Shown piece by piece: positions 1-52,873 of a stretch of 58,410 nt of DNA. Made by a program: the position numbers and the translations under genes. The stretch covers positions 1 through 58,410 of the forward strand of contig JAJRSC010000016.1 in assembly GCA_024278985.1 (NCBI GenBank). The letters run 5' to 3'. The stretch's first letter is position 1, and each line of letters begins with the position of its first letter. The notes beneath the pieces are model-generated. The model saw only the letters and a list, made by a program, of their open reading frames with translations, was not told the origin of the DNA and did no database searches. The stretch comes from an archaeon. Its GTDB lineage: Archaea > AGJL01 > Methanococci > Methanococcales > Methanocaldococcaceae.

Positions 1-2551
1 TTCTTAAAGCTAGTGGTGTTCCTGTAGTATAGTAGTATGTAGTTGTTTCTTCTGGTAATTCTGTTGCTAATGTTATTGTTACGATAGGATCTTTAACTAA
101 TGTTATTTCCAAAATACCATTTTCATAGATATACCATCCTACTTTACTAGTTATGTCATTTTCTTTTAGTGTTATATTATCTGTACCATTATTTATTGTT
201 ATATTTTTAATATTAAAGTCACCTATAGGAATAACTATTATAGCAAATCCTTTATCTGTAGTATTTGTAACATTTAACCTTATTTCTGAAATAACTTCAT
301 TATTATTTATTTCTGTTTTTACTTCTTTTTTTGTAATATTAAATCCAACTGATATAAGTGGTTTAATACTCTCATTAATTTCTTTAATTACATTGTTGAT
401 GTCATCTTTATTTTTTATAGTTATATATTTTGCTTTTTGTTTTGTTTCATTTAATATTTCAATAACTGTTTTATTAATAGATATATTATTTCCAATAATT
501 GGAATACTTATTTTATCTCCAGTATTAAGGGTTAATATAGTAATATTATACTCATCACCAATAATAAAATCTATATTGTTAATATTATTTTCTATATCAT
601 TGTTAATATTTACATAGTTTTTAATAAACTCTAAATTAACCATTTTATTATCTATATAAACCTTTAAAAATTTGTATCCATATATATCTGATAATACAAC
701 ATTTTTTATTATTGCAGAGTAAGTATTGTTAGTTGTATTAAAGGTAATCTCTGCTAATTCAAAATCTCCAGTTTTTGAAAGATTATATCCACTTATAAAT
801 AATGTATTGTTAGATACATTCCAATAATAAGTACCTATTGCTGTAACATTTAAGACTGATAAATTTTTTAATGAAATGTATATATCATACCCACCTAATG
901 CTCTTTCTCTATTAATTCCACAAACTTCTATTTTTGCTTTTATAATTCCATTATTATCTGAAACTTTATACATTTTTAATAATACTGGAGTTTCAACGAC
1001 TTTAACAGTTTTAACAACTTTGTTATCAGATTCATTTTCTTCTTTAATATTATTTAGAGTATCTGCAACTACAACAATAGTATATGTATTTAACTCATTT
1101 GGTGTCCAATTAAAACTTATAGTTTTTGACTCACCAACATTTAATGAATTTATTATAACACTTCCAAGTTTTTCAGTATTTACATAAACACTGACATCAA
1201 AAGGTTCTTTTATATCTTGATGTCCATTATTTATTATAGTTACATTTATAGGATTATTTACTCTATATATTGCAGGATTATTAACATCTACTTTTAAAAT
1301 TTTAATATTTGGTCCTTCAACTGTAACAATTGCTGGATTTATATAAATTTTATTAAATTTGTAACCATTAGCATCAGATACTTTAATATCTGCTAAGTTA
1401 ATCTCGGAACTACCTATATTTACTGCCTTAAATGTAGCTCTTGCAATTATTGTTGGAGTAGTTATATTTCCATCTAATATACTAAAGATTACTTTTCCAT
1501 TTTCAAAGGTTATATTTTCTAAACCTTCAGATGCATTTATTAAAAACTCAAATTTTGTACAATTTAATATCTCAGGATTATATGTTAAGATTCCATCAAT
1601 CCCTTTAGCAGGTCTTTTATCAGTAATATTATCTAATTTAATATCCACTGTAAATGTATCATTTATTTTTACTAATGTTGATGATGGAATTAATTTTATT
1701 TGTATTGGTTCTTCAATTGCACATAAGGTTTTAACATCCTTATTATTACTTTCATTATATTCTATTATAAGATTATCTGGATCCACTACTGCAACTACTG
1801 TATAATTTCTTTCTTCAGTAGGTATAAATGTAAAGTTTATTTCTTTAGATTCATTAACTTTAAGACCATTAATTACTTTTGTTCCAAGTTTTTCAGTATC
1901 TACAAATACACTAACAGTAATATTATTTGTTATATCACTTTCTCCAACATTTTTTACTAATACTGGAATTATGTTATCTTCATACGCTTTTAGAGTAGTT
2001 TGAACGACATTTACAGTTAAATCATAGGGGGAAAGTATTTTTACATTTGAATTTCTCACAACTAAGTTATTCTTATCTACTTTCCATGTGTAGTCTCCAC
2101 CAGAGTTAGATATTACAGTTCCACTTAAGGATATTGATGTATTATCTGAAGGTTTTAATGCTTTAAACTTTAAAGTTGCTATTGTAAAGTTTCCATAAGG
2201 ATAGTTATTAAACCATGACAAGCTAATATATACTCTTCCATTTTCAACAGAAATATTCTTAAGATTTGCACTATTAGCAATATCACTTAAAACAATATCA
2301 TTTTCAGTTATGTTTAATAAACTTGAATTAAAGTATATATATGTTTCAAATCCACCACAATATCCAGAATAGTTATTATAACCATCTGATATTGTTCCAT
2401 TTGGGACATTTTTTACTTCTAAAGTTAAGTTAAAACTTTGTCCCATCTTTACTACAACATTTGATGGAACTAATTCTACTGTTACATTTTCTCCATAAAC
2501 TCCAATAAAGGATATCATTAAAATTGATAATAATATCAACTTCCACTTCAT
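1..2551 (-). CDS. Secreted scaffoldin-like surface protein with alternating cohesin and CARDB domains; 3' end runs off the window
   Basis: Absent from the ORF track because it has no stop in the window. Manual translation from ATG 2551 (GGTGA upstream) stays open for 850 codons: signal peptide MKWKLILLSILMISFIGVYG, cohesin-like (FNLTLEVKNV..YCGGFETYIYFNSSLL..GNFTIATLKFKAL), CARDB-like (VVDPDNLIIEYNESNN), cohesin-like (KGIDGILTYNPEIL..IARATFKAV), CARDB-like (ADTLNNIKEENESDN), third cohesin-like (LGGYDIYI..FELAEITF). Many N-x-S/T sequons. Confidence 0.88.
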   Translation of the reverse strand, partial: MKWKLILLSILMISFIGVYGENVTVELVPSNVVVKMGQSFNLTLEVKNVPNGTISDGYNNYSGYCGGFETYIYFNSSLLNITENDIVLSDIANSANLKNISVENGRVYISLSWFNNYPYGNFTIATLKFKALKPSDNTSISLSGTVISNSGGDYTWKVDKNNLVVRNSNVKILSPYDLTVNVVQTTLKAYEDNIIPVLVKNVGESDITNNITVSVFVDTEKLGTKVINGLKVNESKEINFTFIPTEERNYTVVAVVDPDNLIIEYNESNNKDVKTLCAIEEPIQIKLIPSSTLVKINDTFTVDIKLDNITDKRPAKGIDGILTYNPEILNCTKFEFLINASEGLENITFENGKVIFSILDGNITTPTIIARATFKAVNIGSSEINLADIKVSDANGYKFNKIYINPAIVTVEGPNIKILKVDVNNPAIYRVNNPINVTIINNGHQDIKEPFDVSVYVNTEKLGSVIINSLNVGESKTISFNWTPNELNTYTIVVVADTLNNIKEENESDNKVVKTVKVVETPVLLKMYKVSDNNGIIKAKIEVCGINRERALGGYDIYISLKNLSVLNVTAIGTYYWNVSNNTLFISGYNLSKTGDFELAEITFNTTNNTYSAIIKNVVLSDIYGYKFLKVYIDNKMVNLEFIKNYVNINNDIENNINNIDFIIGDEYNITILTLNTGDKISIPIIGNNISINKTVIEILNETKQKAKYITIKNKDDINNVIKEINESIKPLISVGFNITKKEVKTEINNNEVISEIRLNVTNTTDKGFAIIVIPIGDFNIKNITINNGTDNITLKENDITSKVGWYIYENGILEITLVKDPIVTITLATELPEETTTYYYTTGTPLALR

Positions 2552-2662
2552 TACTATTCACCATTTTAAAGATTTTGATTTTAATTAAGTAGAATAATAT
2601 AAAAATATTACTTTTTATTTTTTTGTTATTAAAATAGTAATTAAAAATTAAAGTAAGGATAG

Positions 2663-4036
2663 TTATCCTGCAGTATATGGTACTGCTGTATTATTATCAG
2701 GATAATATCTTAAGAAATAGTGTGTAGTTCTACCTTTAAATACTTCTGGATGAATTATTGTTCCTAAATCCCATAAAACATCATCAGTGTTCAACAATCC
2801 CAGTTGCCAGTAGTCATCACTTATACAGAATAACCTACCGTTTTGTACTGCTTTGAAGTACTCATATCCTGGGTGGTCTTCTTTGAATGTTGATAACCAC
2901 TCTGTACTTGATGGTACTACCCATATATCTGCATTCTTAGCTCTTTCTGCAAAGGTTTCATAACTTATACATGCACTTCCAGTTCCTGGAATATCTTTAA
3001 ATATGTAATCTCCATGACAATCTTCCATTATCGCCTTAGCAACGTATGACTGTGCTTTTGGAACATAAGTTCCTCCAAAACTTGGATAATTTTTACCCCA
3101 TGCTACTAATGGTCTGTCTGTATTTCTTGTTAATCTTCTAACATCTAATGATCTCTTTACTATTCTTGTAAAGTATTTTTTTGCAACATCTTCCTTGTTG
3201 TAAAATGCTGCAAACAACTTTACCCATTCACATCTAGCAAGATAGGAATCTTCTAAGTATTCTGCATCAGCGACATAAGTTAAGTTCAACTCTTTACATT
3301 TTTCAATTACTGCGTCTCCACTATATCCTGGATAGACAAATATAACTTGTGGTGAGATATTAAGGATTAAATCATAGTTTGGATTGTATGTTGAACCAAC
3401 ATCAATTATTGAACCATTTTCTAGACCTTCCTCAATATTTTTAAAGTACCACTTATATTGTTTACCCCACATTATTCCTTTTACTGAAGCAATTACTGAA
3501 CCATCATTATTTATCGCTTCCATTAAAGCTATTTCTGTAGAACTCATTACAACAACTCTTTTTAAAGGAACATTAATTACTTTATCATATTTTCCTTTAG
3601 CCCATGAAGGAATTGGTTCAGTTTCATTTTTTAATAAAAATCTTTGTCCAGTAGCATCTACTACTATTTTATATGCATATGGTTCTCCATTATAGGGATT
3701 TACTTCAATACCATTTTTATCGTAGTAGGTTATCTTTATATTTTTAGCGTAGACGATAGGTTCTCTTAATTTTTGATAATTATCAAAGAGATAGACCACA
3801 TCTGCAATATCAATTGAACCATCTGCATTTATATCCCCATCTTCCAAACTAAGGTTTCTATGTTTGAAAAGATAGACTACATCTGCAATATTAATTGAAC
3901 CATCTCCATTTACATCTCCGAACCTATGGTTATAGTCTCCTGGAGTAATATCTTTCCATGTTAATGCATTTACATCTGAATATATAGGTATAAATATTAA
4001 AAAAGCTATAGCTATATACCAAATATTTTTTATCAT
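2663..4036 (-). CDS. Dockerin domain fused to a TroA/BtuF-class (cobalamin/iron-complex) ABC substrate-binding protein
   Basis: Two dockerin Ca-loop repeats, GDVNGDGSINIADVVYL and GDINADGSIDIADVVYL, then a helical-backbone binding-protein fold (VPLKRVVVMSSTEIA, NYDLILNISPQVIF, YLARCEWVKLFAAFY, FKAVQNGRLF). Likely start ATG 4036 after GGTGA; track start is 4048. Confidence 0.88.
   Translation of the reverse strand: MIKNIWYIAIAFLIFIPIYSDVNALTWKDITPGDYNHRFGDVNGDGSINIADVVYLFKHRNLSLEDGDINADGSIDIADVVYLFDNYQKLREPIVYAKNIKITYYDKNGIEVNPYNGEPYAYKIVVDATGQRFLLKNETEPIPSWAKGKYDKVINVPLKRVVVMSSTEIALMEAINNDGSVIASVKGIMWGKQYKWYFKNIEEGLENGSIIDVGSTYNPNYDLILNISPQVIFVYPGYSGDAVIEKCKELNLTYVADAEYLEDSYLARCEWVKLFAAFYNKEDVAKKYFTRIVKRSLDVRRLTRNTDRPLVAWGKNYPSFGGTYVPKAQSYVAKAIMEDCHGDYIFKDIPGTGSACISYETFAERAKNADIWVVPSSTEWLSTFKEDHPGYEYFKAVQNGRLFCISDDYWQLGLLNTDDVLWDLGTIIHPEVFKGRTTHYFLRYYPDNNTAVPYTAG
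3790..3920 (-). repeat. Internal duplication encoding the two dockerin repeats
   Basis: Near-identical DNA blocks GATGG(A/T)-containing 'atagac(c/t)acatctgcaatat(c/t)aattgaaccatct' at about 3790-3835 and 3871-3915. Confidence 0.85.
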
Positions 4037-4118
4037 TAATATCACCATTTGGAATTTTAAATATTTAAAATTAATACTGTAAAGATATTATGTCATAAAT
4101 TATATTTTAAAGGATTAC

Positions 4119-4151
4119 AATAAAACTATATAAAATAAAACTATATAAAAT
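4119..4151. repeat. 15-bp tandem duplication of a TATA-like element upstream of the dockerin gene
   Basis: aataaaactatataa repeated twice; the minus strand reads TTTTATATA twice. Confidence 0.6.
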
Positions 4152-4229
4152 TTATGGTAAACTTTATTATTAATAAAATAATCTTTAAAATATAAAAATA
4201 TATTATTTGCTTTTAAATCATAAATTTTA

Positions 4230-4664
4230 TTATTTTATTTTTTCTATTCTATTTTCTGGGAAAATTATAGCATTGTTCTCACAACACATATAGGAACAGG
4301 CATTGCAGTTAATTATACAGTTATATGGATATTTAACAATAACTCTACCATTTTCTATATCATAAACACCTTTAGGGCAAAATTCAACACATTTCTTACA
4401 ATTTTTGCATTTTTCATAATTTATCTTTGGGAACCATGGGATTTCTTTCCTCTTCTTCCCATTAAATTCCTCATACTCTATTTCCATAACTGCATCATAA
4501 AGCGTTTTATATAATCTTTTATTTGGTTCTCTAACAAGTTTTGTGACTTCTTCATAAGTATTATATATTTCATCCATTCCCAATTCTTTTGAGAGTTTTT
4601 TAATCTCCAAATTTAAAATCATAAATTTTCTAATTTTCTTTAGTAGTTCTTTTTTCTTTTCCAT
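4230..4664 (-). CDS. 2x[4Fe-4S] ferredoxin-domain protein with N-terminal helical extension
   Basis: CKNCKKCVEFCP and CIINCNACSYMCC motifs; divergent from cobN. Confidence 0.85.
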   Translation of the reverse strand: MEKKKELLKKIRKFMILNLEIKKLSKELGMDEIYNTYEEVTKLVREPNKRLYKTLYDAVMEIEYEEFNGKKRKEIPWFPKINYEKCKNCKKCVEFCPKGVYDIENGRVIVKYPYNCIINCNACSYMCCENNAIIFPENRIEKIK

Positions 4665-4808
4665 CTTTTCACATTATTTAAGTTTTAAAAGTCATAAAAA
4701 AATCTACAAAAATTTTAATTATGTACCATGGATGATATATTAATATTAGTTGAAACTTTATAAATATTAATTGAAAATTTTTTAATTTAATTTTAATGGT
4801 GAAAATTA

Positions 4809-7800
4809 ATGATAAAAATAGGGTTTGTTTCTACAGTAGATAGTGATGATTTGGTTTTTGAAGAGGCATATAAAGAAGTAAAAAAGTATGGAATTGAATT
4901 TAAAATTTTGGATTATAAATGTAACGAGAAAGAGTTTAAAGATTTTTTAGAGTTTATTAAAGATGCTAACATTGTATTTACAAAACTTATGGTAGGAAAA
5001 AAAGCCTTTAAATACTTTGATGAATTAAAAGCATTTGTTGATAAACGTAATATTCCATTTCTTCCACTCCCTACATTAAATGAAGTTCATCCAGATTTGG
5101 ATGATGCTACAACTGTAAGTGAGGAAGTTAAATTAAAGGTTATCAAATATTTGGGATATGAAGGAATTGAAAATTATAAAAATCTCTTATTATATTTAGC
5201 AAATAAATTTGGAGATAAAAATATTCCTTATAAAGAACCAAAGCCCATGCCATGGCAAGGAATTTATTATAAAGGAAAATACTTTGAAACCTTAAATAAC
5301 TATTTAAATTATTTAAAAAAAATTGATAAAAAAATAGATGGAAAACCAATTATTGGAATTTTATTTTACAGAAATTGGTTTATTGCAAATAATATTGATT
5401 ATCTTAACGATTTAATTAATGTTATTGAGAATAAAGGAGCAATACCTGTTGCTGTCTTCACATCACATTTAAAAAATGAATTGGGGGCTATTGGGACATT
5501 AGAAGTGTTTAAAAAATTTTTTTATAAAGATGGCAAACCATTTATTCATACTTTAATAAACACAACTATGTTTACCTTATCTATGGGAGTTAAGGCAGAT
5601 ATCCTAAAAGATGAACCTGAATTTTTAAAAGAGTTAAATGTCCCAATCTTGCAGGGAATTATAAGTACTGGATTTATTGAAGATTGGGAAAAATCAATAT
5701 CTGGAATAAATCCAATTGATTTAGTTATAGGAATGGCAATGCCAGAATTTGATGGAGCAATAATACATTTCCCAATAGGTGGAAAGAAAAAGGTTAAGGA
5801 TGGAGATGTTGGAGTTCCAATTATAAAATATAAAGCAATAAAAGATAGAACTGAGAAAATAGTTAATTTAGCATTGAAATATGCAGATTTAAAGTTAAAA
5901 CCAAACAAAGAGAAAAGAATTGCAATAATTTTCCATAACTATCCACCAAGGAATGATAAAATAGCAAGTGCTTTTGGATTAGATAGTCCTGAAAGTGTTG
6001 TCAATATATTAAAAAAGTTAAAAAATAGAGGTTTTATAGTCGATGAAATTCCAAAAAATGGAACTGAACTAATTAAAAAAATGTTAAATTATGCAACAAA
6101 TGATAAGAGATTTTTAACTGAAGAGATGATAAAAAAAGCTGTAGGAAAAATAAAAAAAGAAGATTATGAGAAATGGTTTAATTCTCTCTCTAATAAAGTT
6201 AAAGAAGAATTAATTAAAAATTGGGGGGAAATTCCAGGAGAAGTTATGAATTTTGATAATAACTTAATTATTCCAGGAATAATTAATGGAAATGTTTTTA
6301 TCTCAGTTCAACCACCAAGGGGCTTTGGGGAAAATCCTTCCGCCATTTATCATTCTCCAGATATGCCACCTACTCATTACTACATTGCTTTTTATAAATG
6401 GATTAAAGAAGTTTTTAAAGCAGATGCTATAATGCATATAGGAAAACATGGAAGTTTAGAATGGTTGCCAGGAAAAGGTGCAGGTTTATCAAGAGATTGC
6501 TATCCAGATATTTGTATGGAATTGCCAAACATCTATCCATATATTGTAAATAATCCTGGAGAAGGAACTCAAGCAAAGAGAAGAAGTTATGCAACAATTA
6601 TAAGCCATTTAATTCCACCAATGACAATATCTGAGTTGTATGGAGATTTAGAAGAATTAGAAAAGAATATTGATGAATACTATGAAACTGAAAATAAAGA
6701 AAAGAAAGAGTTTTTAAAGAAAGAAATTTTGAATAAAATTAAAGAATTAAAGCTGAATGAGGACTTGATGGATGGGAAAGTTATAGATGAGGAAATTAGT
6801 GAAAAAAACTTTGATAAATTGTTAAATAAAATCCATGATTATTTAGAGGAATTAAAAAATAGGCAGATAAATGAAGGATTGCATATAATGGGAGAACCTT
6901 TGGAAGAGGAGAAGTTAATTAATATGATATTTATGATTATCAGATATCAGTTTAACTACTTGGAGATTCTATCTAAAATTTTAGGGTATGATTGGAATAA
7001 ATTAAATGAAGAAAAAGGAAAAAAACATAAAATTATTGATAAAATAAATAAAATTGGAATAAATCTAATAAAAGAATATATGAAATATAATTTTGATGAA
7101 AATAAAATTGAGGAATTAAAAACCATAAAACCTAATTCTGAACTAAAAGAAGTTTTAAAAATTATATCAAAAATATATAGAAATTTAATGATGGTAAATG
7201 AAGAGATTGAAAATGCAGTAAATGCCTTAGAAGGAAAATATGTTCCTCCAAAAATAGCAGGAGCACCAACAAAAGATATAAACTGCCTCCCGACAGGAAG
7301 AAACTTCTATTCTTGCAACCCTCAAGAAATACCAACAAAATCTGCTTATGAAATGGGAAAGAAATTAGCTAATGATTTAATTAATAAGTATTTAAAAGAA
7401 GAGGGAAAGTATCCTGAGTATATTGGAATTATTGTCTGGGGTTCTCCTACAATGAGAACAAAGGGAGATGATATTGGGGAGATTTTATATTTATTAGGGG
7501 TTAAACCAGTTTGGAATAAGATGGGGAGAGTTGTTGGTTTAGAAGTCATACCATTAGAAGAGTTAGGAAGGCCAAGAATTGATGTAACTTTAAGAATTAG
7601 TGGTTTATTTAGGGATACTTTTCCACAAGTTATTGATTTAATAGATGAGGCAATAAAAATGGTTGCAAACTTAGATGAGCCAGATGACCTAAATTTTGTT
7701 AAAAAACATTACAAGCAGGAAGTTATGGAAAAAATAAAGAAAGGAATTGATGAAAAAACAGCAAGAGAAACATCTCTATATAGAATATTTGGATGTAAAC

Positions 7801-8498
7801 CTGGATGTTATGGAGCTGGAGTTGCAGATTTATTAACTGAGAAAAATTGGAAATCATTGGAGGATTTGGCAAAGGTTTATGTTGAATGGGGAGGTTATGT
7901 TTATGGAAAAGGAATTCATGGTATTGAGGCAAAGGAAGAATTTATTAAAAGGTTATCAAAGATTGAGCTAACTGTTAAAAATGAAGATAGCCAAGAATGG
8001 GACATTTTTGAGGGAGATGATTTCAATAGTTATCATGGTGGGATGATTGCAGCTGTAACTTTCTACTCTGGTAAGCAACCAAAAAGTTATATTGGAGATA
8101 CTTCAAATCCAAATAAGATAAAAACAAAACATTTGAAAGAGGAAGGAAAGCAGATATTTAGAACAAAAATAATGAATCCAAAGTGGATTGAAGGGTTGAA
8201 GAAGCATGGCTATAAGGGGGCAAGTGATTTCTCAAAGTATATTGACCATATCTTTCAATGGGATGCAACCTCAAATATAATAGATGACTGGATGTATCAA
8301 AAAATTGCTGAAAATTATGTTTTTGATAAAGAAATGGAAGAGTTCTTTAAAGAAAACAATCCTTATGCCTTATTAAACATAACTGAAAGGTTATTAGAAG
8401 CTATAGAAAGGGGAATGTGGAAGACAGATGAAGAAACAAAAGAAAAGTTAAGAAAAAAATACTTAGAAATTGAGGGAATGATAGAAGAGAAATTATAA
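4809..8498 (+). CDS. cobN: Cobaltochelatase subunit CobN
   Basis: 1229 aa; HIGKHGSLEWLPGK, NPGEGTQAKRR, LPTGRNFYS, LGRPRIDVTLRISGLFRD, GFGENP motifs. Confidence 0.95.
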   Translation: MIKIGFVSTVDSDDLVFEEAYKEVKKYGIEFKILDYKCNEKEFKDFLEFIKDANIVFTKLMVGKKAFKYFDELKAFVDKRNIPFLPLPTLNEVHPDLDDATTVSEEVKLKVIKYLGYEGIENYKNLLLYLANKFGDKNIPYKEPKPMPWQGIYYKGKYFETLNNYLNYLKKIDKKIDGKPIIGILFYRNWFIANNIDYLNDLINVIENKGAIPVAVFTSHLKNELGAIGTLEVFKKFFYKDGKPFIHTLINTTMFTLSMGVKADILKDEPEFLKELNVPILQGIISTGFIEDWEKSISGINPIDLVIGMAMPEFDGAIIHFPIGGKKKVKDGDVGVPIIKYKAIKDRTEKIVNLALKYADLKLKPNKEKRIAIIFHNYPPRNDKIASAFGLDSPESVVNILKKLKNRGFIVDEIPKNGTELIKKMLNYATNDKRFLTEEMIKKAVGKIKKEDYEKWFNSLSNKVKEELIKNWGEIPGEVMNFDNNLIIPGIINGNVFISVQPPRGFGENPSAIYHSPDMPPTHYYIAFYKWIKEVFKADAIMHIGKHGSLEWLPGKGAGLSRDCYPDICMELPNIYPYIVNNPGEGTQAKRRSYATIISHLIPPMTISELYGDLEELEKNIDEYYETENKEKKEFLKKEILNKIKELKLNEDLMDGKVIDEEISEKNFDKLLNKIHDYLEELKNRQINEGLHIMGEPLEEEKLINMIFMIIRYQFNYLEILSKILGYDWNKLNEEKGKKHKIIDKINKIGINLIKEYMKYNFDENKIEELKTIKPNSELKEVLKIISKIYRNLMMVNEEIENAVNALEGKYVPPKIAGAPTKDINCLPTGRNFYSCNPQEIPTKSAYEMGKKLANDLINKYLKEEGKYPEYIGIIVWGSPTMRTKGDDIGEILYLLGVKPVWNKMGRVVGLEVIPLEELGRPRIDVTLRISGLFRDTFPQVIDLIDEAIKMVANLDEPDDLNFVKKHYKQEVMEKIKKGIDEKTARETSLYRIFGCKPGCYGAGVADLLTEKNWKSLEDLAKVYVEWGGYVYGKGIHGIEAKEEFIKRLSKIELTVKNEDSQEWDIFEGDDFNSYHGGMIAAVTFYSGKQPKSYIGDTSNPNKIKTKHLKEEGKQIFRTKIMNPKWIEGLKKHGYKGASDFSKYIDHIFQWDATSNIIDDWMYQKIAENYVFDKEMEEFFKENNPYALLNITERLLEAIERGMWKTDEETKEKLRKKYLEIEGMIEEKL

Positions 8499-8524
8499 AC
8501 TATTATAATTATAGTTGTGAAATT

Positions 8525-9385
8525 ATGAAATATCTCATTTTAAAAATAACAAATAGATGTAATTTAAACTGTGTTTATTGTTATGCAATTAATAAAAATA
8601 ACAGAGATATGGATTTTGAAACAGCAAAGAATGCCATTGATTATATTTTAAAAATGGATGATAAGTTAAAAATTCAATTTACTGGTGGAGAACCACTTTT
8701 AAATTTTGATTTGATTAAAAAAATAATAGATTATTGCAATGAAAACTATTCCAATAAATATATTTCCTATGCAATACAAACAAATGGAACCCTACTAAAT
8801 GAAAAAATTATTAAAAAAATTAAAAATTTAAATATAAAAATTGGTATTAGTATAGATGGTTTGGAGGTAAATGATAAGCTAAGACCCTACAAAAACAAAA
8901 ATCCTTCAACAATAGATACATTAAAAGGAATATATCTTTTAAAAGAATATAATATTCCTTTTGGTGTAACAATAGTTGTAACAAATAAAAATTTACCATA
9001 TATAAAAGAATTTGTTGAATATTTAATGGCTTTAGGTATTAAAAGCATAAGTTTTGATTTATTAAAACCAAAGAGAAAAGAACATTTAAAACTATTGCCT
9101 GATAAAGATGAATTTAATAAAATTTTAAATGAATTAAAGAATTATCCAATATATATTAAAAATATAGTAAGAAATGAAAAGTTAAAATATTATAAAAAAT
9201 ACTGCTTTTTAAATACTGGAGATTTACTCTTTGTTAATGAATATGGAGACATTTTTCCCTGTCCAACATTGGAAGGATATTTTTATATAGGAAATATAAA
9301 TAAATCTAATAAAAAAAATTTAAAATTATTTAAAGTTGATTGTAGTTATTGTTTTGCAAGAAAATATTTAATGAATCAATTTTAA
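8525..9385 (+). CDS. Radical SAM protein with C-terminal Cys-containing (twitch/SPASM-like) region
   Basis: CNLNCVYC, FTGGEPLL, QTNGTLL, SIDG, GDIFPC. Confidence 0.9.
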   Translation: MKYLILKITNRCNLNCVYCYAINKNNRDMDFETAKNAIDYILKMDDKLKIQFTGGEPLLNFDLIKKIIDYCNENYSNKYISYAIQTNGTLLNEKIIKKIKNLNIKIGISIDGLEVNDKLRPYKNKNPSTIDTLKGIYLLKEYNIPFGVTIVVTNKNLPYIKEFVEYLMALGIKSISFDLLKPKRKEHLKLLPDKDEFNKILNELKNYPIYIKNIVRNEKLKYYKKYCFLNTGDLLFVNEYGDIFPCPTLEGYFYIGNINKSNKKNLKLFKVDCSYCFARKYLMNQF

Positions 9386-9395
9386 GGGATAAACA

Positions 9396-10145
9396 ATGAT
9401 TGGAGTTTCAACAAGCATATTTTTAAATTCTAATAAAAAGTTAGAAAATGCTCTTTCCTTTTTAGAGAATAAAACAAAATATGTAGAACTTATTTGTGAT
9501 GGATACTTAAATGTTATGGAACATACTGAAATTCCTCTATCATACAATTTAAAATATACATTACATTGTCCTCTTACAGATATGAACCTATCATCTTTTA
9601 GAGAGAAAGTTAGAAAAACAAGTATAGAGATTGTTGAAGATATTTTAAAAGTTGCTGATGTTGTTAATGCCTCTTTAATTGTACTACATCCAGGATATTG
9701 TGTATTTAAAGAGGACTATTTAAAGGCATTAAATTCTCTAAAAAAATCTTTATATGAATTAAATAAACTTCAAAATGAATATTCTATACAAATAACAATA
9801 GAGAATATGCCATCCTATAGTATGTTTATGTTTAGAGAACCAAATGAAATTATTGATACTTTAGGAGATATTGGAATAACTTTTGATATTGGCCATTCTT
9901 TTTTAAATAAAAATATTGAAAAATTTTTAGATAATAACCTTATAAAAAAAATTTATCACATTCATATCCATGATAACAATGGAGTATTTGATGAACATCT
10001 ATGTATAGGAAAGGGCAAGATTGAATTTGATAAATATAAAAAGAAGTTAAAAAAAATAAATTGTATAAAAATGATAGAAATGCAGTATAAAAGTATTGAT
10101 GATTTAGATTTATGTATTGATAGAGTTAAAAGATTGTTCAGATAA
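9396..10145 (+). CDS. Xylose isomerase-like/AP endonuclease family 2 TIM-barrel protein
   Basis: TLHCP, VLHPG, IENMP, TFDIGH, HIHIHDNNG..DEHLCIGKG. Confidence 0.85.
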   Translation: MIGVSTSIFLNSNKKLENALSFLENKTKYVELICDGYLNVMEHTEIPLSYNLKYTLHCPLTDMNLSSFREKVRKTSIEIVEDILKVADVVNASLIVLHPGYCVFKEDYLKALNSLKKSLYELNKLQNEYSIQITIENMPSYSMFMFREPNEIIDTLGDIGITFDIGHSFLNKNIEKFLDNNLIKKIYHIHIHDNNGVFDEHLCIGKGKIEFDKYKKKLKKINCIKMIEMQYKSIDDLDLCIDRVKRLFR

Positions 10146-10196
10146 TAAATTTCTTTTTATACAATTTAAGATTATTATAAAAAGAAACTCTTTTAG

Positions 10197-10982
10197 GTGA
10201 TCAAATTGGAGGATGTTTTAAAAATGGATGATTGGAGAGCATATAAAATTTCCCATACTGTTGAAATTAATGGAGATATTGAAAAAACAAAAACCTTAAT
10301 AATAGAGTTTGAAAAAAGAAGAAAAGTTTTATCAACAAGAGAAGGTTTTAAGATAGTTAAATATGTTGGTAACCATTCAATCCCTGTACTATTTTGGGAT
10401 AAGGTTCATAATTATAAGGATTATGAAGACCATGTCTTAAAGAAAATTGGAATTAAAAAAGAGGATATTGCTTTATTATCAACTGGAGCTGATATGGATA
10501 ATTTAGCAGTTGCTAAAGAAGAATTTGATGAGTTTTATACAATTGCTTTTACAACTGCAGGAGCAAAGTATAATGCTGTTAGATTAGGAGATGAAGAAAC
10601 AGATTATATTGAAAAGGATTTCAAAACATACAAAATTGAAAATGGAAAATTAATTCCTAAAGAAGAAGTAGGAACAGTTAATATTATTTTAATAACTAAT
10701 GCAAACTTAACTGATGGAGCAATGGCAAGAGCAATTATAACTATAACTGAGGCAAAAACAAATGCTTTTCAAGAGTTGGATATAAGAAGTACTAAACATC
10801 CAGAACTTCAAGCTACAGGGACAGGAACTGATAATATTATTATTGTTAAAGGTTTTGGTAGATGTGTTAATTATACTGGAGGACATACAAAGATTGGTGA
10901 AATGATAGCGAAATGTGTTAAAAAATCCGTTATAGAGGCATTAATAAAGCAAGACAATATAAAAATTAATAAAAATTTTTAA
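10197..10982 (+). CDS. cbiZ: Adenosylcobinamide amidohydrolase (corrinoid salvage)
   Basis: LLSTGADMDN, TTAGAKYNA, GTVNIIL, AIITITEAKT, ATGTGTD, GGHTKIGE. Confidence 0.88.
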   Translation: MIKLEDVLKMDDWRAYKISHTVEINGDIEKTKTLIIEFEKRRKVLSTREGFKIVKYVGNHSIPVLFWDKVHNYKDYEDHVLKKIGIKKEDIALLSTGADMDNLAVAKEEFDEFYTIAFTTAGAKYNAVRLGDEETDYIEKDFKTYKIENGKLIPKEEVGTVNIILITNANLTDGAMARAIITITEAKTNAFQELDIRSTKHPELQATGTGTDNIIIVKGFGRCVNYTGGHTKIGEMIAKCVKKSVIEALIKQDNIKINKNF

Positions 10983-11079
10983 TTAAATAATAATGTAATA
11001 TAGCAAATATTTAAGTGATAAAATATAATTATAAAAATTATTAAGTAAGTTTATCATTTTATTCATTATGTATTAAGAT

Positions 11080-11110
11080 AAAAAATAGTAAATAATATAT
11101 ACTATTTTTT
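11080..11110. promoter_or_regulatory. Inverted repeat upstream of the cohesin operon (possible operator)
   Basis: aaaaaatagta-N9-tactatttttt; AT-rich, so it may be chance. Confidence 0.3.
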
Positions 11111-11175
11111 TAATTATTTTTAAGTTATAATAAATATTTTTAATAATAATAAAATAACATTTAATAGGGGTAAGT

Positions 11176-11712
11176 ATGAAAAAAAAATTAATTCTATTGT
11201 TAGTTCTTATGTTTCAAATATGTTTTGCAGTTGATATATCAGTAAATGCTCCTTCAAAAGTTCAGCAAGGAGAAATTTTTACATTAGAAGTTTATGCTAA
11301 AAATGTATCAAATTGTGGAGGATTTGAATGTGATTTATATGTTTCAAATAATTTAAAAATATTAAATGTTACATCCTACAATGTTGGAGCAGATTACAAT
11401 TTAACAATAAATAAAAATAGTTTTGCAGCAATACAGTATGCTTTTTTGACAAATCCAAAGAATGAGGACTTTAAAGTTGGAGAATTTAAAATAAAAGCTC
11501 TAAAGAGTGGCAATGCAACAATAGTAGTTAAAGCTGTTGCCTCAGATAGTGAAGGAAATGCAATTAAAATTCCAGAGAAAGTTATAAATCTTAAAGTTGA
11601 AAGTAATCAAGTAAATGAAGAAAAAAAAGAAACAGGTTTTTCTTTTAATATTGTAGTGGTTATATTTGCAATTATTTTAGTTGGTATATTGATATATATG
11701 ATTAGAAAGTGA
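11176..11712 (+). CDS. Single-cohesin protein with signal peptide and C-terminal membrane anchor
   Basis: QGEIFTLEVYAKNVSNCGGFECDLY..VGEFKIKALKSGNATIVV..ASDSEG; C-terminal hydrophobic helix plus RK tail. Confidence 0.8.
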   Translation: MKKKLILLLVLMFQICFAVDISVNAPSKVQQGEIFTLEVYAKNVSNCGGFECDLYVSNNLKILNVTSYNVGADYNLTINKNSFAAIQYAFLTNPKNEDFKVGEFKIKALKSGNATIVVKAVASDSEGNAIKIPEKVINLKVESNQVNEEKKETGFSFNIVVVIFAIILVGILIYMIRK

Positions 11713-11718
11713 TTAACT

Positions 11719-12555
11719 ATGTATAGATATATAATTTATTTTTTAATTCCAATGTTTATATTGTTAAATGTTGTTTATAGTGAAGATATCTATGTTAGAT
11801 TAATTCCTGAAGAAGTAGTATCTGAAGGAAATATAATTAAATTTAATATATCTATTGAGAACATTCCAAAGGTCGGTGATATTAAATATTATGATGGGAC
11901 GGAGGATGGAGGTTGTAAAGGAGTTGATATTTATATTAACTATTCTCCTGATTATTTAAAACCTTATGGGTTTAACTGGAGTGATATTTGTAAAAATGAA
12001 AAAATAAAATCATACGAATTTAAAAATGGTACATTTGTATTAAGTATCTTATTTAATAAACCTATTGAAGAAAATTTCTACATTGGGGAAATTATGTTTA
12101 TTCCTACTAAAAAAGGTGAGACATATGTTAATATATCTGGAGTTATTAGTTCAGCTTTAGGAATAAAATATGATGGTATTCAAGACTATTATGATTATTA
12201 TACAAAAACATTTAAAAAGTATCCTAAAACCAAATTTTTTGGAGCAAAGGTTATTATAAAAGAAATTAATGAGACTAATTTAACAAATACAAGTTTAAAA
12301 CTAAGTGAAACTATAGAAGAGAAAAATTTTGAGAATATCAAATCAACATCAACTTCTAACATAATTAATAGAATCTATATAAATCCACAAGTAAGAAAAC
12401 CAGAAGTTATTGTTAAAGAAATAAATATAACTGAGTATAGGCCAATAGTAAAAATAATTGTAAATAAAAAAAATGATTATGACATATCAAATTTATTTTT
12501 TGGAATAATTTTAGGAATTATATTTGGATTTATTTTTTCAAAATTTAAGAAATAA
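11719..12555 (+). CDS. Cohesin-like surface protein with C-terminal membrane anchor
   Basis: FNISIENIP..GGCKGVDIYINYSPDYL..IGEIMFIPTKKGETYVNISG; S/T-rich linker; TM helix plus KFKK tail. Confidence 0.7.
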   Translation: MYRYIIYFLIPMFILLNVVYSEDIYVRLIPEEVVSEGNIIKFNISIENIPKVGDIKYYDGTEDGGCKGVDIYINYSPDYLKPYGFNWSDICKNEKIKSYEFKNGTFVLSILFNKPIEENFYIGEIMFIPTKKGETYVNISGVISSALGIKYDGIQDYYDYYTKTFKKYPKTKFFGAKVIIKEINETNLTNTSLKLSETIEEKNFENIKSTSTSNIINRIYINPQVRKPEVIVKEINITEYRPIVKIIVNKKNDYDISNLFFGIILGIIFGFIFSKFKK

Positions 12556-12570
12556 AATTAGGGATAATTA

Positions 12571-14604
12571 ATGAAATTAAAGATAAAAGTAAAGATTTTA
12601 ATATTAATTTTATTTTTAGTATTACAAATAAATTTTGGAATTAATGTTTTATTAATTCCCAATAATATCAGTGTAAAAGAATATGATTCTTTTAATATAA
12701 CATTAATTGTAAATACTAACGAACAATTAGGAGGATTTGAGGATATTATTTATATTCCTGATGGGTTAAATATAACTAAAGATGATATCATTTTAAGTGA
12801 TACTGCTAATAGTGCAAATCTTAAGGATGTCTCTATAGAAAATGGTAAAATAGATATTAGTTTAGTATGGTTTAATAATTATCCATCTGGAAACTTTACT
12901 ATTGCAACACTTAAATTTAAAACATTAAATAATGGGACATATAAAATAATTCAAAGTCCTACTTTATCAGATACAAATGGTAATGAAATAAAAAATGTAT
13001 CCTATAATTCAGTTGTAGTAAATATTATTGGGTTAAATTCAACTATTGTAGATATAATTCCTATAAATCCAACAATAAATAATAGTTTTGATGTTCTTGT
13101 TTCAATAAAAAATGCAAAAGAAAATATTTACAATATTAGTGGAAGTATCTACTATCCAAATTTAAAAATTGTAAATTTAGATTTTTATTATTTTGAGGAT
13201 AATATTACTAATGTTAATTTGTGGTATAATAATGATAGTTTAAGTTTTTTTGTTAAATTAAATACCTCAAAAGATATATTTAACTTAATGAAATTAACAT
13301 TTTTTACAAGTAAAGAAGGTAGTTATATTATTAACGCAACTATAAAAATAAATGGAAAAAATGTAATTGTAAATCCTGCATGTTTTACACTTGGAAATAT
13401 AACTGTTGAAAAATATGTAGGTTTTCCAATAAACGAAAAAAATATTTCTTATGGAGATAGTGGATTTATATATATTAAGGCAGAAAATATTGATTCGAAT
13501 ATATCAGAAATTAGAGGGAATATATCATATAACTCAACATTATTGAATGTTAGTGATATATCTACAAGTTTACAAACTCTTGAAAAAAATTTGTCTATTA
13601 AAAATAATACTATTAATTTTTATATTAAAATAAATGGAAGTGTAAGTAATAATTTTAATATATTATCTTTTTGGATAAGACCACTTATAAATAGGAATAT
13701 AACAACAGAACTTAAGATTTTAAATATATCTTTATTAGATATAAATGGAAGTAATGTAAATGTTCCAGTAAAGGATAGTTTAATTATCCATATAATTCCC
13801 AAAAATCTTACAGAAAATATTTCAAATATAAATAATACACCACCAAAGGTATATTTCGTATTTGAAGTTATTGACGATTATACTGTGAAATTTTATTCTT
13901 TATGTTATGATAAAGAAAATAATACTCTGTACTATTATTGGAATTTTGGAGATAACACTACATCAACAGATATAAATCCAACTCATACATATAAAAAAGA
14001 TGGACTTTATATTGTTAAGTTATATGTTAATGACTCATTTGGAGCTATTGGATATGATGAATGTTTAATTAATATAAAAAAATTAAATCCAATAAATATT
14101 ACACTTAGCAACACTACAATATATCCAACTAATCATAACATAACAATATATTGTAATATAACTTTAAAAAATCCTTTTTCTAAAAGGATTTATGGAGATA
14201 TTCAGTTTTTAGATTATGCTAATTATAAACCAAACAAAACATGTATAACTTTTGAATTATTACCTAATGAAACAAAAGTATTTTCAGTTCCTATAAATAT
14301 CTCAGGTCCTACAGAGATAAAGGGATATGTTGAATATTATATTCCAAATAAAAGAGTAATTAAATATGTTTGGAATTTTAAAAAAGATATTAATGTCTTA
14401 AAGATAAATAAGATAAGTTATAGAGATTACTATTATAATATTTCACTTAACCAATCAAAAGTTATTATAAAAATTAATAAAATTTTAAAAAATTATACTA
14501 TTACAAAAAATATAGATATTGAAAATAATAATCTAAGTATTTTAATGTATTTAATAGGGTTTTTAATTGGCTTTTTAATAATTTATAAAAAGAAAAAATT
14601 TTAA
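12571..14604 (+). CDS. Multi-cohesin plus PKD-domain surface protein with C-terminal membrane anchor
   Basis: About three cohesin-like units (LGGFEDIIY..TIATLKFK; ISGSIYY..LMKLTF; IRGNISYNSTLL..ILSFWIRP), PKD motif YYWNFGDNTTSTDINPTHTYKKDGLYIVKLYV, TM helix plus KKKKF. Confidence 0.82.
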   Translation: MKLKIKVKILILILFLVLQINFGINVLLIPNNISVKEYDSFNITLIVNTNEQLGGFEDIIYIPDGLNITKDDIILSDTANSANLKDVSIENGKIDISLVWFNNYPSGNFTIATLKFKTLNNGTYKIIQSPTLSDTNGNEIKNVSYNSVVVNIIGLNSTIVDIIPINPTINNSFDVLVSIKNAKENIYNISGSIYYPNLKIVNLDFYYFEDNITNVNLWYNNDSLSFFVKLNTSKDIFNLMKLTFFTSKEGSYIINATIKINGKNVIVNPACFTLGNITVEKYVGFPINEKNISYGDSGFIYIKAENIDSNISEIRGNISYNSTLLNVSDISTSLQTLEKNLSIKNNTINFYIKINGSVSNNFNILSFWIRPLINRNITTELKILNISLLDINGSNVNVPVKDSLIIHIIPKNLTENISNINNTPPKVYFVFEVIDDYTVKFYSLCYDKENNTLYYYWNFGDNTTSTDINPTHTYKKDGLYIVKLYVNDSFGAIGYDECLINIKKLNPINITLSNTTIYPTNHNITIYCNITLKNPFSKRIYGDIQFLDYANYKPNKTCITFELLPNETKVFSVPINISGPTEIKGYVEYYIPNKRVIKYVWNFKKDINVLKINKISYRDYYYNISLNQSKVIIKINKILKNYTITKNIDIENNNLSILMYLIGFLIGFLIIYKKKKF

Positions 14605-51721: not shown

Positions 51722-52873
51722 TTGTTTAAAACATTAACTAATTTTGAAAAAGCTAAGGAATTAGTTTATAATACATTGAAGAAGTATATTAAAGTTGAGG
51801 AAGTTGATTTATTGGAAGGTTATAATAAAATATTAGCTGAAAATATTTTTTCCCCTATTCCCTTGCCTTACTTCAATAGAGCAGCAATGGATGGGTATGC
51901 AGTTAGAGCAGAAGATACTTATGGAGCATCCCCTACAAATCCAATAATATTAAACTTAGTTGATAAAAATTTTATATCAGAAAATGAAGCAAAAAAAATA
52001 AATACTGGAGAAATGCTACCAGAAGGGGCAAATGCTGTAGTAATGAAAGAATTCTGTCAAGAATTTGAGGATTTTGTAGAAGTTTATAAAACTGTTCATC
52101 CTAATGAAAATGTTTCTAAGATTGGAGAAGATGTAAAAAAAGGAGAGCTTATATTAAAAAAAGGAGAAAAAATAAATAGCTTTCATCTTTCTATTCTTTC
52201 ATCCTTAAATATTCCCAAAATTAAAGTCTATAATATAACTGTTGGAGTTATATCAACAGGTGATGAATTGGTTGAACTTGGAGATAAATTAGAAAATGGA
52301 AAAATTGTTAATTCAAATTATTACCTACTTTATGGGTTAATAAAGAGTTTAGGTTTTGATGTAAACTATGATGGGATTGTAGGAGATGATGAAAAAAAAA
52401 TAAAAGAAACTATAAAAAAGGCAGTTAAAGAAGTTGATATTTTAATAACTACTGGTGGAACATCTGTAGGAGAAAGAGACTATACTGTTAAAGCAGTTAA
52501 AGATTTAGGAGAAATTATATTCCATGGAATAAATATTCGCCCTGGAAAACCATTTGCCTTTGGTTTAATAGAGAAACCAGTTTTTTTATTATCTGGCTAT
52601 CCTGTTGCTTCTGCTGTTCAGTTTGAACTTTTTATATATAGATTTTTTACTAAAAGAAAAACCATTTATTTACCACTAAAAAGGTCAATAGCTTCAGAGA
52701 TTGGTAGAGTAGATTTTGTTAGAGTTAAAATAGATAAAAATAGGGTTGAACCTGTTAGAATAACAGGAAGTGGTGTTATAACCTCTTTAATAAAAAGTGA
52801 TGGATATATATTAATTAATGAAAATGTAGAAGGTTATGAAAAGGATGATTTAGTTAAAGTTTATTTATTTTAA
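51722..52873 (+). CDS. moeA: Molybdopterin molybdotransferase
   Basis: AAMDGYAV, ISTGDEL, TTGGTSVGERD, RPGKP, LSGYPVAS. Confidence 0.95.
   Translation: MFKTLTNFEKAKELVYNTLKKYIKVEEVDLLEGYNKILAENIFSPIPLPYFNRAAMDGYAVRAEDTYGASPTNPIILNLVDKNFISENEAKKINTGEMLPEGANAVVMKEFCQEFEDFVEVYKTVHPNENVSKIGEDVKKGELILKKGEKINSFHLSILSSLNIPKIKVYNITVGVISTGDELVELGDKLENGKIVNSNYYLLYGLIKSLGFDVNYDGIVGDDEKKIKETIKKAVKEVDILITTGGTSVGERDYTVKAVKDLGEIIFHGINIRPGKPFAFGLIEKPVFLLSGYPVASAVQFELFIYRFFTKRKTIYLPLKRSIASEIGRVDFVRVKIDKNRVEPVRITGSGVITSLIKSDGYILINENVEGYEKDDLVKVYLF

Follow-up and report, generated by a model that had tools for sequence, protein, structure and literature searches.

Results

The window analysed here is a 58,410-nucleotide stretch of DNA from an archaeon of the Methanocaldococcaceae (GenBank assembly GCA_024278985.1, contig JAJRSC010000016.1, positions 1 to 58,410). 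At its left end a minus-strand open reading frame (ORF) specifies residues 1-850 of a secreted surface protein, a Methanococcales scaffoldin with a full length of ~1,000 residues. The protein is very probably a cohesin-CARDB scaffoldin with an S_layer_C end, and it is a member of a conserved, functionally unstudied Methanococcales family. On balance it seems to serve as the S-layer-side receptor for the two dockerin-bearing substrate-binding proteins of the genome. From comparative genomics we infer that its cohesins would pair with the dockerin of the neighbouring gene product.

Predicted cohesins alternate with CARDB spacers

From the N-terminus the protein comprises a signal peptide, cohesin 1, CARDB 1, cohesin 2, CARDB 2, cohesin 3, a conserved distal domain of ~190 residues and a Thr/Tyr-rich linker (Table 1). 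CARDB (Pfam PF07705) is found twice in the protein (E = 1.7e-29, 102.4 bits with a cut-off of 22.7), and the CARDB-type PDB sequences 2l0d, 2kl6 and 3idu are matched at E of about 2e-4. The model of CARDB 1 superimposes closely on 3idu (Table 1). A few residues join one domain to the next, and no Pro/Thr linkers separate the cohesins. This agrees with a preliminary description of this DNA, which had placed CARDB-like folds and not P/T linkers between cohesin-like modules. For the rigid, thermostable stalk that it also suggested, a putative property, the short joints are the only sign observed.

When the whole 850-residue protein is run in one Pfam scan, Cohesin (PF00963, curated cut-off 24.1 bits) is undetected at E ≤ 0.1. 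The protein was cut at the CARDB borders and the pieces were scanned singly. Under these conditions module 2 exceeds the Cohesin cut-off (24.7 bits, E = 2.9e-5), and in a six-frame genome search it reaches 24.0 bits, or 24.4 with its neighbours. The match of module 1 spans positions 4-124 of the 139 in the profile. We also built a profile from 45 aligned modules, comprising the three of the scaffoldin, one from a neighbouring 178-residue protein and 41 from orthologous loci (tblastn). Compared with PDB sequences, all 23 distinct matches of this profile at E ≤ 1 are cohesins, with 3l8q on top (E = 4.5e-12) and the Archaeoglobus cohesin 2xdh among them (E = 0.029). At E ≤ 0.01, 26 of the 45 members match Pfam Cohesin themselves. 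The profile places the scaffoldin modules at residues 23-167, 283-415 and 524-643; as these three are contained in it, independent support is provided by the single-piece Pfam scans and by fold searches.

For the latter we used AlphaFold2 models built on alignments of orthologous segments, covering residues 21-414 (25 sequences, predicted local distance difference test score (pLDDT) 93.7, predicted template modelling score (pTM) 0.70) and residues 522-850 (17 sequences, pLDDT 90.3, pTM 0.83). The model of module 2 superimposes on known cohesins with Z scores of 16.6-17.9 and root-mean-square deviations (rmsd) of 1.8-2.2 Å over about 130 residues. For module 3 Foldseek lists cohesins on top (1ohz_A with TMt 0.70 and rmsd 2.1 Å; 2xdh with TMt 0.66), and in a search independent of Foldseek ranks 1-18 are all cohesins (Z 8.8-12.1). 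Module 1 matches the type III cohesin 2zf9 with Z 12.9. The preliminary description had proposed cohesins, with generic Ig-like folds as the alternative and structure prediction with Foldseek as a check. That module 2 passes the Pfam cut-off, that the profile finds only cohesins in the PDB and that a cohesin is the top fold for each of the three modules all favour the first. Taken together, sequence and models argue that all three modules are true cohesin homologues. When cohesin 2 was modelled in complex with the dockerin of the neighbouring gene product and two calcium ions, the score was 0.31, with a mark of 0.32 and controls at 0.00; this is counted neither for nor against binding.

The distal domain is modelled as strands, two long helices and a beta-sandwich, for which the fold search returns generic beta-sandwich matches only (Z about 7.5). 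Scanned alone, the distal part (residues 644-850) has no meaningful Pfam family (best E 0.24). An NCBIfam scan of the 850 residues yields no family, and neither an SLH domain nor a carbohydrate-binding module (CBM) appears in their Pfam scan. The motif VGWYIYENGILEITLVKDPIVTITL and the T-rich stretch after it, quoted in the preliminary description, lie at residues 813-850. The distal domain is common to other surface proteins that end in S_layer_C.

The gene is intact at its start and truncated at the contig end

The window is the entire contig C18 of a 30-contig assembly of 1,106,849 bp (completeness 85.8%), and the gene is truncated because its frame runs off the contig end. The frame starts with ATG and has no stop in the 850 codons before the window edge. 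It is missing from the default ORF track because open-ended frames are dropped there; once open ends are allowed it is listed, as expected from the preliminary description, which had read an ORF of 850+ codons at this place. The GC content around the ORF is 0.22-0.28. With ~0.09 stops per random codon, our own estimate from the local composition, we estimate the chance of an 850-codon open frame at near 1e-35. Orthologues share the same start (MKWK...GVYGENVTVEL). The sequence ahead of the ATG, read by eye, contains a GGTGA motif at a distance of 6 nt and, 44-54 nt upstream, a TATA-like TTTTTATATTA. The protein contains 41 N-x-S/T sequons in 850 residues, or 4.8 per 100, which is above the 99th percentile (4.10; median 0.37) of 745 crude assembly ORFs of at least 200 residues. 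This density fits a heavily N-glycosylated surface protein, with a count that is inflated by the Asn richness of low-GC DNA.

The missing end probably carries an S-layer module

On the gene strand, the last 141 nt of the contig recur unchanged at the end of contig C17, where a different open frame of 301 codons finishes in the same 47 residues. This shared repeat broke the assembly at both contig ends. The end of contig C5 (reverse complement) overlaps both the window end and the C17 end by 26 nt, in frame, and adds 153 residues before a stop. The C5 fragment matches Pfam S_layer_C (PF05124; 41.9 bits, cut-off 23.9). It shares 57-62% identity with the extreme C-terminus of each of 11 full-length orthologues out of 11, and is also similar to the C-terminal end of the major S-layer protein (contig C1). 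Probably this fragment is the missing scaffoldin end; as it would add 153 residues to the 850, the full-length protein would have about 1,003. The suggestion of the preliminary description that the distal part may lead to an S-layer anchor beyond the window is thus strengthened by the in-frame C5 overlap and by the S_layer_C end in seven of eight orthologues scanned. S_layer_N (PF05123) is not matched in the 850 residues, its sole match in the assembly being on contig C1. We therefore reject identity with the lattice-forming S-layer protein.

Two further surface proteins of the assembly share these parts. On C17 (14933-15835) a protein of at least 301 residues has a different N-terminal half, the same distal domain and the same last 141 nt; upstream of it lies the gene of a 687-residue secreted metallophosphoesterase with OB-fold and DUF5689 domains. 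On C23 (40409-40639) a protein of ~290 residues ends in a GGPxxN...YPGKNKGVI...AGSDRWGTK module, and the same GGPxxN...AGSDRWGTK module terminates the major S-layer protein and the C5 fragment. These observations suggest a family of putative S-layer-attached accessory proteins.

Two substrate-binding proteins carry the dockerins

The gene 111 nt upstream of the scaffoldin ORF is co-oriented with it, and its dockerin match confirms the arrangement given in the preliminary description. The type I dockerin (Pfam PF00404, cut-off 22.9 bits) scores 20.6 bits in the protein scan, under the cut-off, and 23.0 bits in the six-frame search, over it. It consists of two near-identical calcium-loop-plus-helix repeats, DVNGDGSINIADVVYLF and DINADGSIDIADVVYLF, and precedes a Peripla_BP_2 body (E = 3.7e-20). 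In a six-frame Pfam search of the 85.8% complete assembly only one further dockerin ORF was found (C28:9285..10604), also with Peripla_BP_2 and followed by two FecCD permeases. In both binding proteins the dockerin, with its two calcium-loop repeats, is at the mature N-terminus. An alignment of 27 dockerins including both paralogues has 17 invariant columns of 72.

Both dockerin ORFs of the assembly being binding proteins, no dockerin-bearing glycoside hydrolase is present among them. A cellulosome was rejected, with no CBM in the protein and no dockerin-bearing enzymes in the 85.8% complete assembly. A third dockerin candidate (51722..52873), based on one regular-expression motif at residue 212, is unsupported by the six-frame Pfam search and was taken as chance.

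From sequence we infer that both dockerin proteins are binding proteins of the BtuF/FhuD class, belonging to FecCD-type ATP-binding cassette (ABC) importers and placed among corrinoid genes. The gene neighbourhood makes a corrinoid or a metal chelate the likely ligand.

The scaffoldin family is conserved in Methanococcales

At E ≤ 0.001 a word-seeded protein search returned 33 proteins. Those ranked 1-20 have 496-1353 residues, and their named sources are all Methanococcales (Methanotorris, Methanothermococcus, Methanocaldococcus, Methanococcus aeolicus and Methanofervidicoccus), with orthologues of 974-1353 residues across the order. They are annotated as CARDB domain-containing, APHP domain or S-layer proteins, and none of these names mentions a cohesin or scaffoldin role. 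The epithet 'unannotated' in the preliminary description is thus correct for the truncated copy and does not extend to its orthologues. In Pfam scans of eight orthologues, CARDB is found in all, S_layer_C in seven and Cohesin over the cut-off in five. The orthologue P0004 is 52% identical over 813 alignment columns and aligns in two registers one repeat apart; as it also has three CARDB and three Cohesin stretches in Pfam, it appears to carry an extra repeat. Across genera the modules are 50-73% identical, and in some orthologues they are duplicated.

Cohesins and dockerins occur together

We then compared 40 Methanococcales genomes. Scaffoldin matches occur in 28 at E ≤ 1e-10, the cohesin profile in 27, and the dockerin segment likewise in 27, nearly always in frames of 425-475 residues. 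Cohesin and dockerin are both present in 26 genomes and both absent from 12; one has a cohesin only (G030) and one a dockerin only (G017). G030 is 64% complete, and its binding-protein gene begins at base 1 of a contig. The split between presence and absence runs through three genera, and among the 16 other genomes from the genus of this archaeon each component is present in 8. The co-occurrence is suggestive, the relatives being non-independent.

Judged from coordinates, 23 of the 26 genomes have the dockerin gene immediately before the multi-cohesin ORF and in the same orientation. The exceptions are G006, which has no scaffoldin, G020, where the two are on opposite strands about 4 kb apart, and G028, which is fragmented. 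Four loci were read ORF by ORF (G001, G025, G036 and G039), and in each the dockerin binding protein is followed by the scaffoldin. A second dockerin binding protein is present in G001, G036 and G039, followed in G001 and G039 by a permease-like ORF as judged by eye. A CobN-like ORF is found in the locus of G001, G025 and G039, and the ATPase of G001 was scanned as ABC_tran.

The anchor of the binding protein is apparently exchanged in relatives

Orthologues of the binding-protein body are present in 37 of the 40 genomes. Six congeners without cohesins have close orthologues, and four of them were compared (G002, G005, G007 and G016; G008 and G012 were not included). In these the body is 66-72% identical. 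In all four the signal peptide ends in a lipobox-like PGC, SGC or AGC followed by a short linker, at the place that the dockerin takes here. This apparent exchange of a lipobox for a dockerin, with lipid modification predicted from the motif, is the strongest argument for the dockerin as a surface tether.

The lipobox genes have neighbours of their own. A gene for a NifH-like ATPase (by eye, from its N-terminal P-loop) follows in G005 and G007, and a cobyrinic-acid-diamide-synthase-like gene in G016. This suggests a wider link of the binding protein with tetrapyrrole cofactor genes.

Membrane-anchored cohesins and other genes of the locus

All cohesin-like modules of the assembly are within positions 1-14604 of the window. 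At E ≤ 1e-5 there are six in four genes, i.e. three in the scaffoldin and one each in proteins of 178, 278 and 677 residues, all of which end in a hydrophobic helix as judged by eye. Searching with the module profile, hmmsearch reports weaker additional modules in the 677-residue protein. The 278-residue protein is found in the genome profile search and goes unreported by hmmsearch with the same alignment, probably through a difference in filters. The trio is conserved, and divergent from the dockerin gene, in all four other loci read.

A corrinoid-flavoured block (4230-10982) separates the scaffoldin from these three genes (Table 1). Among relatives the order of this block differs, and an ABC ATPase and permeases are adjacent.

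The genome G006 (98% complete) has two dockerin binding proteins, CobN, an ABC ATPase and one membrane-anchored cohesin of 185 residues (C1:969000-987000). Neither a scaffoldin, a scaffoldin remnant nor a PKD protein was found there, and an unrelated gene of 1019 residues occupies the scaffoldin's place. As G006 manages with one small cohesin, the scaffoldin is dispensable for tethering and is an addition.

Table 1. Positions of the scaffoldin gene, its domains and the neighbouring genes in the window
Feature	Position	Strand	Basis
Scaffoldin gene, first 850 codons; 3' end lost at contig end	2..2551	-	Open-ended ORF listing
Thr/Tyr-rich linker, aa 833-850, into contig end	2..55	-	Read from translation
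Conserved distal domain, aa 644-832	56..622	-	Model pLDDT 90.3; paralogue on C17
Cohesin module 3, aa 522-643, cohesin by predicted fold, without Pfam match	623..988	-	Foldseek and second fold search
CARDB domain 2, aa 415-521	989..1309	-	Pfam, PDB sequence matches
Cohesin module 2, aa 281-414	1310..1711	-	Pfam Cohesin 24.7 bits, E 2.9e-5; cohesins Z 16.6-17.9
CARDB domain 1, aa 175-280	1712..2029	-	Pfam; 3idu_A Z 16.4, rmsd 1.5 Å
Cohesin module 1, aa 21-174, insertion NGTISDGYNNYSGY unique among modules	2030..2491	-	Pfam Cohesin 17.6 bits, E 0.0046; 2zf9 Z 12.9
Signal peptide, aa 1-20 (MKWK, hydrophobic core, VYG then E)	2492..2551	-	Read from translation; same N-terminus in orthologues
Intergenic region with TATA-like box (2605-2595) and GGTGA ribosome-binding site (2562-2558)	2552..2662	-	Read by eye
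Dockerin-tagged substrate-binding protein: signal peptide, dockerin aa 37-94 (nt 3767-3940), Peripla_BP_2 body	2663..4048	-	Pfam, translation
Ferredoxin-like gene	4230..4664		
CobN	4809..8498		TIGR02257, 1055 bits, over cut-off
Radical S-adenosylmethionine/SPASM-like gene	8525..9385		
Xylose-isomerase-fold (sugar-phosphate-isomerase-fold) gene	9396..10145		
CbiZ	10197..10982		E 6e-53
178-aa single-cohesin protein, C-terminal transmembrane helix	11176..11712	+	Profile and Pfam searches
278-aa cohesin-like protein, C-terminal transmembrane helix	11719..12555	+	Module profile E 5.1e-15
677-aa protein with cohesin-like modules, PKD domain and C-terminal transmembrane helix	12571..14604	+	Profile searches

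Discussion

In the arrangement that we favour, the S_layer_C end would fix the scaffoldin to the S-layer and its three cohesins would act as receptors for the dockerins of both binding proteins. Docking may thereby replace the lipid anchor that the same binding proteins have in relatives lacking the system, and would retain multiple copies of them between the membrane and the S-layer. The three membrane-anchored cohesin proteins, encoded 9-12 kb away, are probably part of the same system.

Several points weigh against this assignment. Every cohesin-dockerin pairing proposed here is putative. Cohesins 1 and 3 stay under the Pfam cut-off, the former at 17.6 bits and the latter with no match, and the fold assignment of module 1 is less exclusive since pilin-type sandwiches at Z 10-11 closely follow its cohesin scores. 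As C17 ends in the same 141 nt as the window, the C5 fragment could belong to the paralogue there, so that its ownership is ambiguous, and an S_layer_C module may face inward or outward. The genomes compared are related members of one order, and counts of co-occurrence overstate the independent support. The ligand is read from the neighbouring genes, and among PDB sequences the binding protein has no relative at E ≤ 0.01. A binding protein must also reach its permease in the membrane, which a membrane-anchored cohesin would serve more obviously. G006 keeps both dockerin binding proteins without a scaffoldin, and the small membrane-anchored cohesin may be the real receptor.

The last two points lead to the most serious alternative, in which the dockerin proteins dock only to the 178-, 278- and 677-residue membrane cohesins and the scaffoldin cohesins serve otherwise, as a reserve, in adhesion to cells or surfaces, or with a non-canonical partner. 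A membrane anchor would set the binding protein beside its permease. In G006 the single 185-residue membrane cohesin gene is divergent from one of the two dockerin genes, small membrane cohesin genes are likewise divergent beside the dockerin gene in the four genomes read, and CARDB is treated as an adhesion-related domain in PMC5244752. With only two dockerins in the assembly, however, the three scaffoldin cohesins would be left partnerless. Moreover, in 23 of 26 genomes the scaffoldin gene directly follows a dockerin gene of the same orientation, and the dockerin helices are near-invariant (17 of 72 columns) throughout the order and in both paralogues, which fits one shared specificity. We consider docking to the membrane cohesins alone unlikely, yet a serious contender.

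Less probable still is that the protein is a structural or adhesive S-layer accessory whose cohesin-fold modules bind nothing specific, its link to the dockerin being inherited gene order. The sub-threshold Pfam scores of cohesins 1 and 3 would fit this, as would the public names of the orthologues (CARDB, APHP or S-layer proteins) and the presence of the cassette of distal domain and S_layer_C on cohesin-less surface proteins. Yet cohesins and dockerins appear to be gained and lost together, with 38 of 40 genomes concordant in a distribution that is patchy inside three genera, and the modules are well conserved across genera and in some orthologues duplicated. The exchange of anchors on the binding protein also points to the dockerin working as an anchor. 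Finally, a pseudogene or an assembly chimera at the repeat, which the 141 identical nt at two contig ends and an assembly completeness of 85.8% might suggest, is very improbable given 850 codons without a stop at about 24% GC, collinearity with intact orthologues (52% identity to P0004 over 813 columns), a conserved start region and two confident models.

Returning to the scaffoldin as an S-layer-side receptor, we tentatively consider a more extended version, which we hold to be possible rather than probable. Here Methanococcales would possess a minimal self-contained system that carries nothing but binding proteins belonging to ABC importers for corrinoids or metals, which arose by exchange of a lipoprotein anchor for a dockerin and which has two tiers of receptors, single cohesins at the membrane and a three-socket scaffoldin at the S-layer. 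If this two-tier reading is true, binding proteins would concentrate at the S-layer, capture scarce ligand and pass to the membrane cohesins beside the permease. A cohesin-dockerin system of archaea outside cellulosomes would then have received a functional assignment for the first time, and cells without an outer membrane or wall would be seen to retain binding proteins in a new way.

The system is unusually small, with two dockerins, six cohesin-like modules in four genes and a defined cargo, and the congeners with a lipobox on the same binding protein provide a natural control. As orthologues are found in named species or strains of Methanocaldococcus, Methanothermococcus, Methanotorris and Methanococcus, tests of binding, localisation and deletion look practicable. 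The arrangement suggests a way in which archaea that have an S-layer alone could hold on to binding proteins, and may offer a function for accessory proteins that end in S_layer_C. It thus represents a testable case of cohesin-dockerin roles outside cellulose digestion.

The Methanococcales orthologues (P0003-P0021) share 39-55% identity with the protein described here, together with the order of cohesins and CARDB domains, the distal domain, the S_layer_C end and a dockerin gene upstream. They differ in the number of repeats, and the present copy is truncated by the contig. The non-cellulosomal cohesin 2xdh of Archaeoglobus fulgidus also comes from a hyperthermophilic archaeon and resembles cohesin 2 (Z 16.9, rmsd 2.1 Å, 17% identity) and cohesin 3 (Z 11.7), whereas the entry consists of a single ~160-residue cohesin module (chain length 163). 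The protein from which it derives is not known to be a scaffoldin with several cohesins and an S-layer anchor. Bacterial anchoring scaffoldins of the SdbA, OlpB and ScaB types (2b59, 3kcp and 4ums were matched) likewise present several cohesins, of the same fold and profile, on a surface-anchored polypeptide. In contrast, the archaeal protein has an S_layer_C anchor with no SLH or CBM match, its spacers are folded CARDB domains and not Pro/Thr linkers, and its assembly contains no dockerin-bearing glycoside hydrolase.

A literature search of titles and abstract openings gave no paper on a cohesin-dockerin system of Methanococcales; Peer et al. 2009 may list such ORFs. The function of cohesins and dockerins outside cellulosomes is called unknown by Timmers et al. 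2017 (PMC5244752) and by Chadwick et al. 2022 (PMC9012536). The latter paper describes proteins with up to five cohesins in archaea of the anaerobic methanotrophic (ANME) group, and dockerins on binding proteins of the NikA/OppA and TroA types; this account is from genomics only and proposes an involvement of the S-layer. The same text states that an earlier survey had reportedly found no multi-cohesin scaffoldins in archaea (PMC9012536). Like the system described here, that of ANME is archaeal and non-cellulosomal and combines multi-cohesin proteins with dockerin-tagged ABC binding proteins (PMC9012536). In the ANME system the scaffoldin-like proteins themselves bear a dockerin, and S-layer domains occur together with dockerins (PMC9012536), whereas here cohesins and the S-layer module share one protein. 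Furthermore, the cargo here consists of two Peripla_BP_2-class binding proteins only, CARDB alternates with the cohesins and the organism belongs to a different order. Compared with known scaffoldins, the S_layer_C anchor, the CARDB spacers, a cargo of two ABC binding proteins and a natural exchange of lipobox for dockerin are novel.

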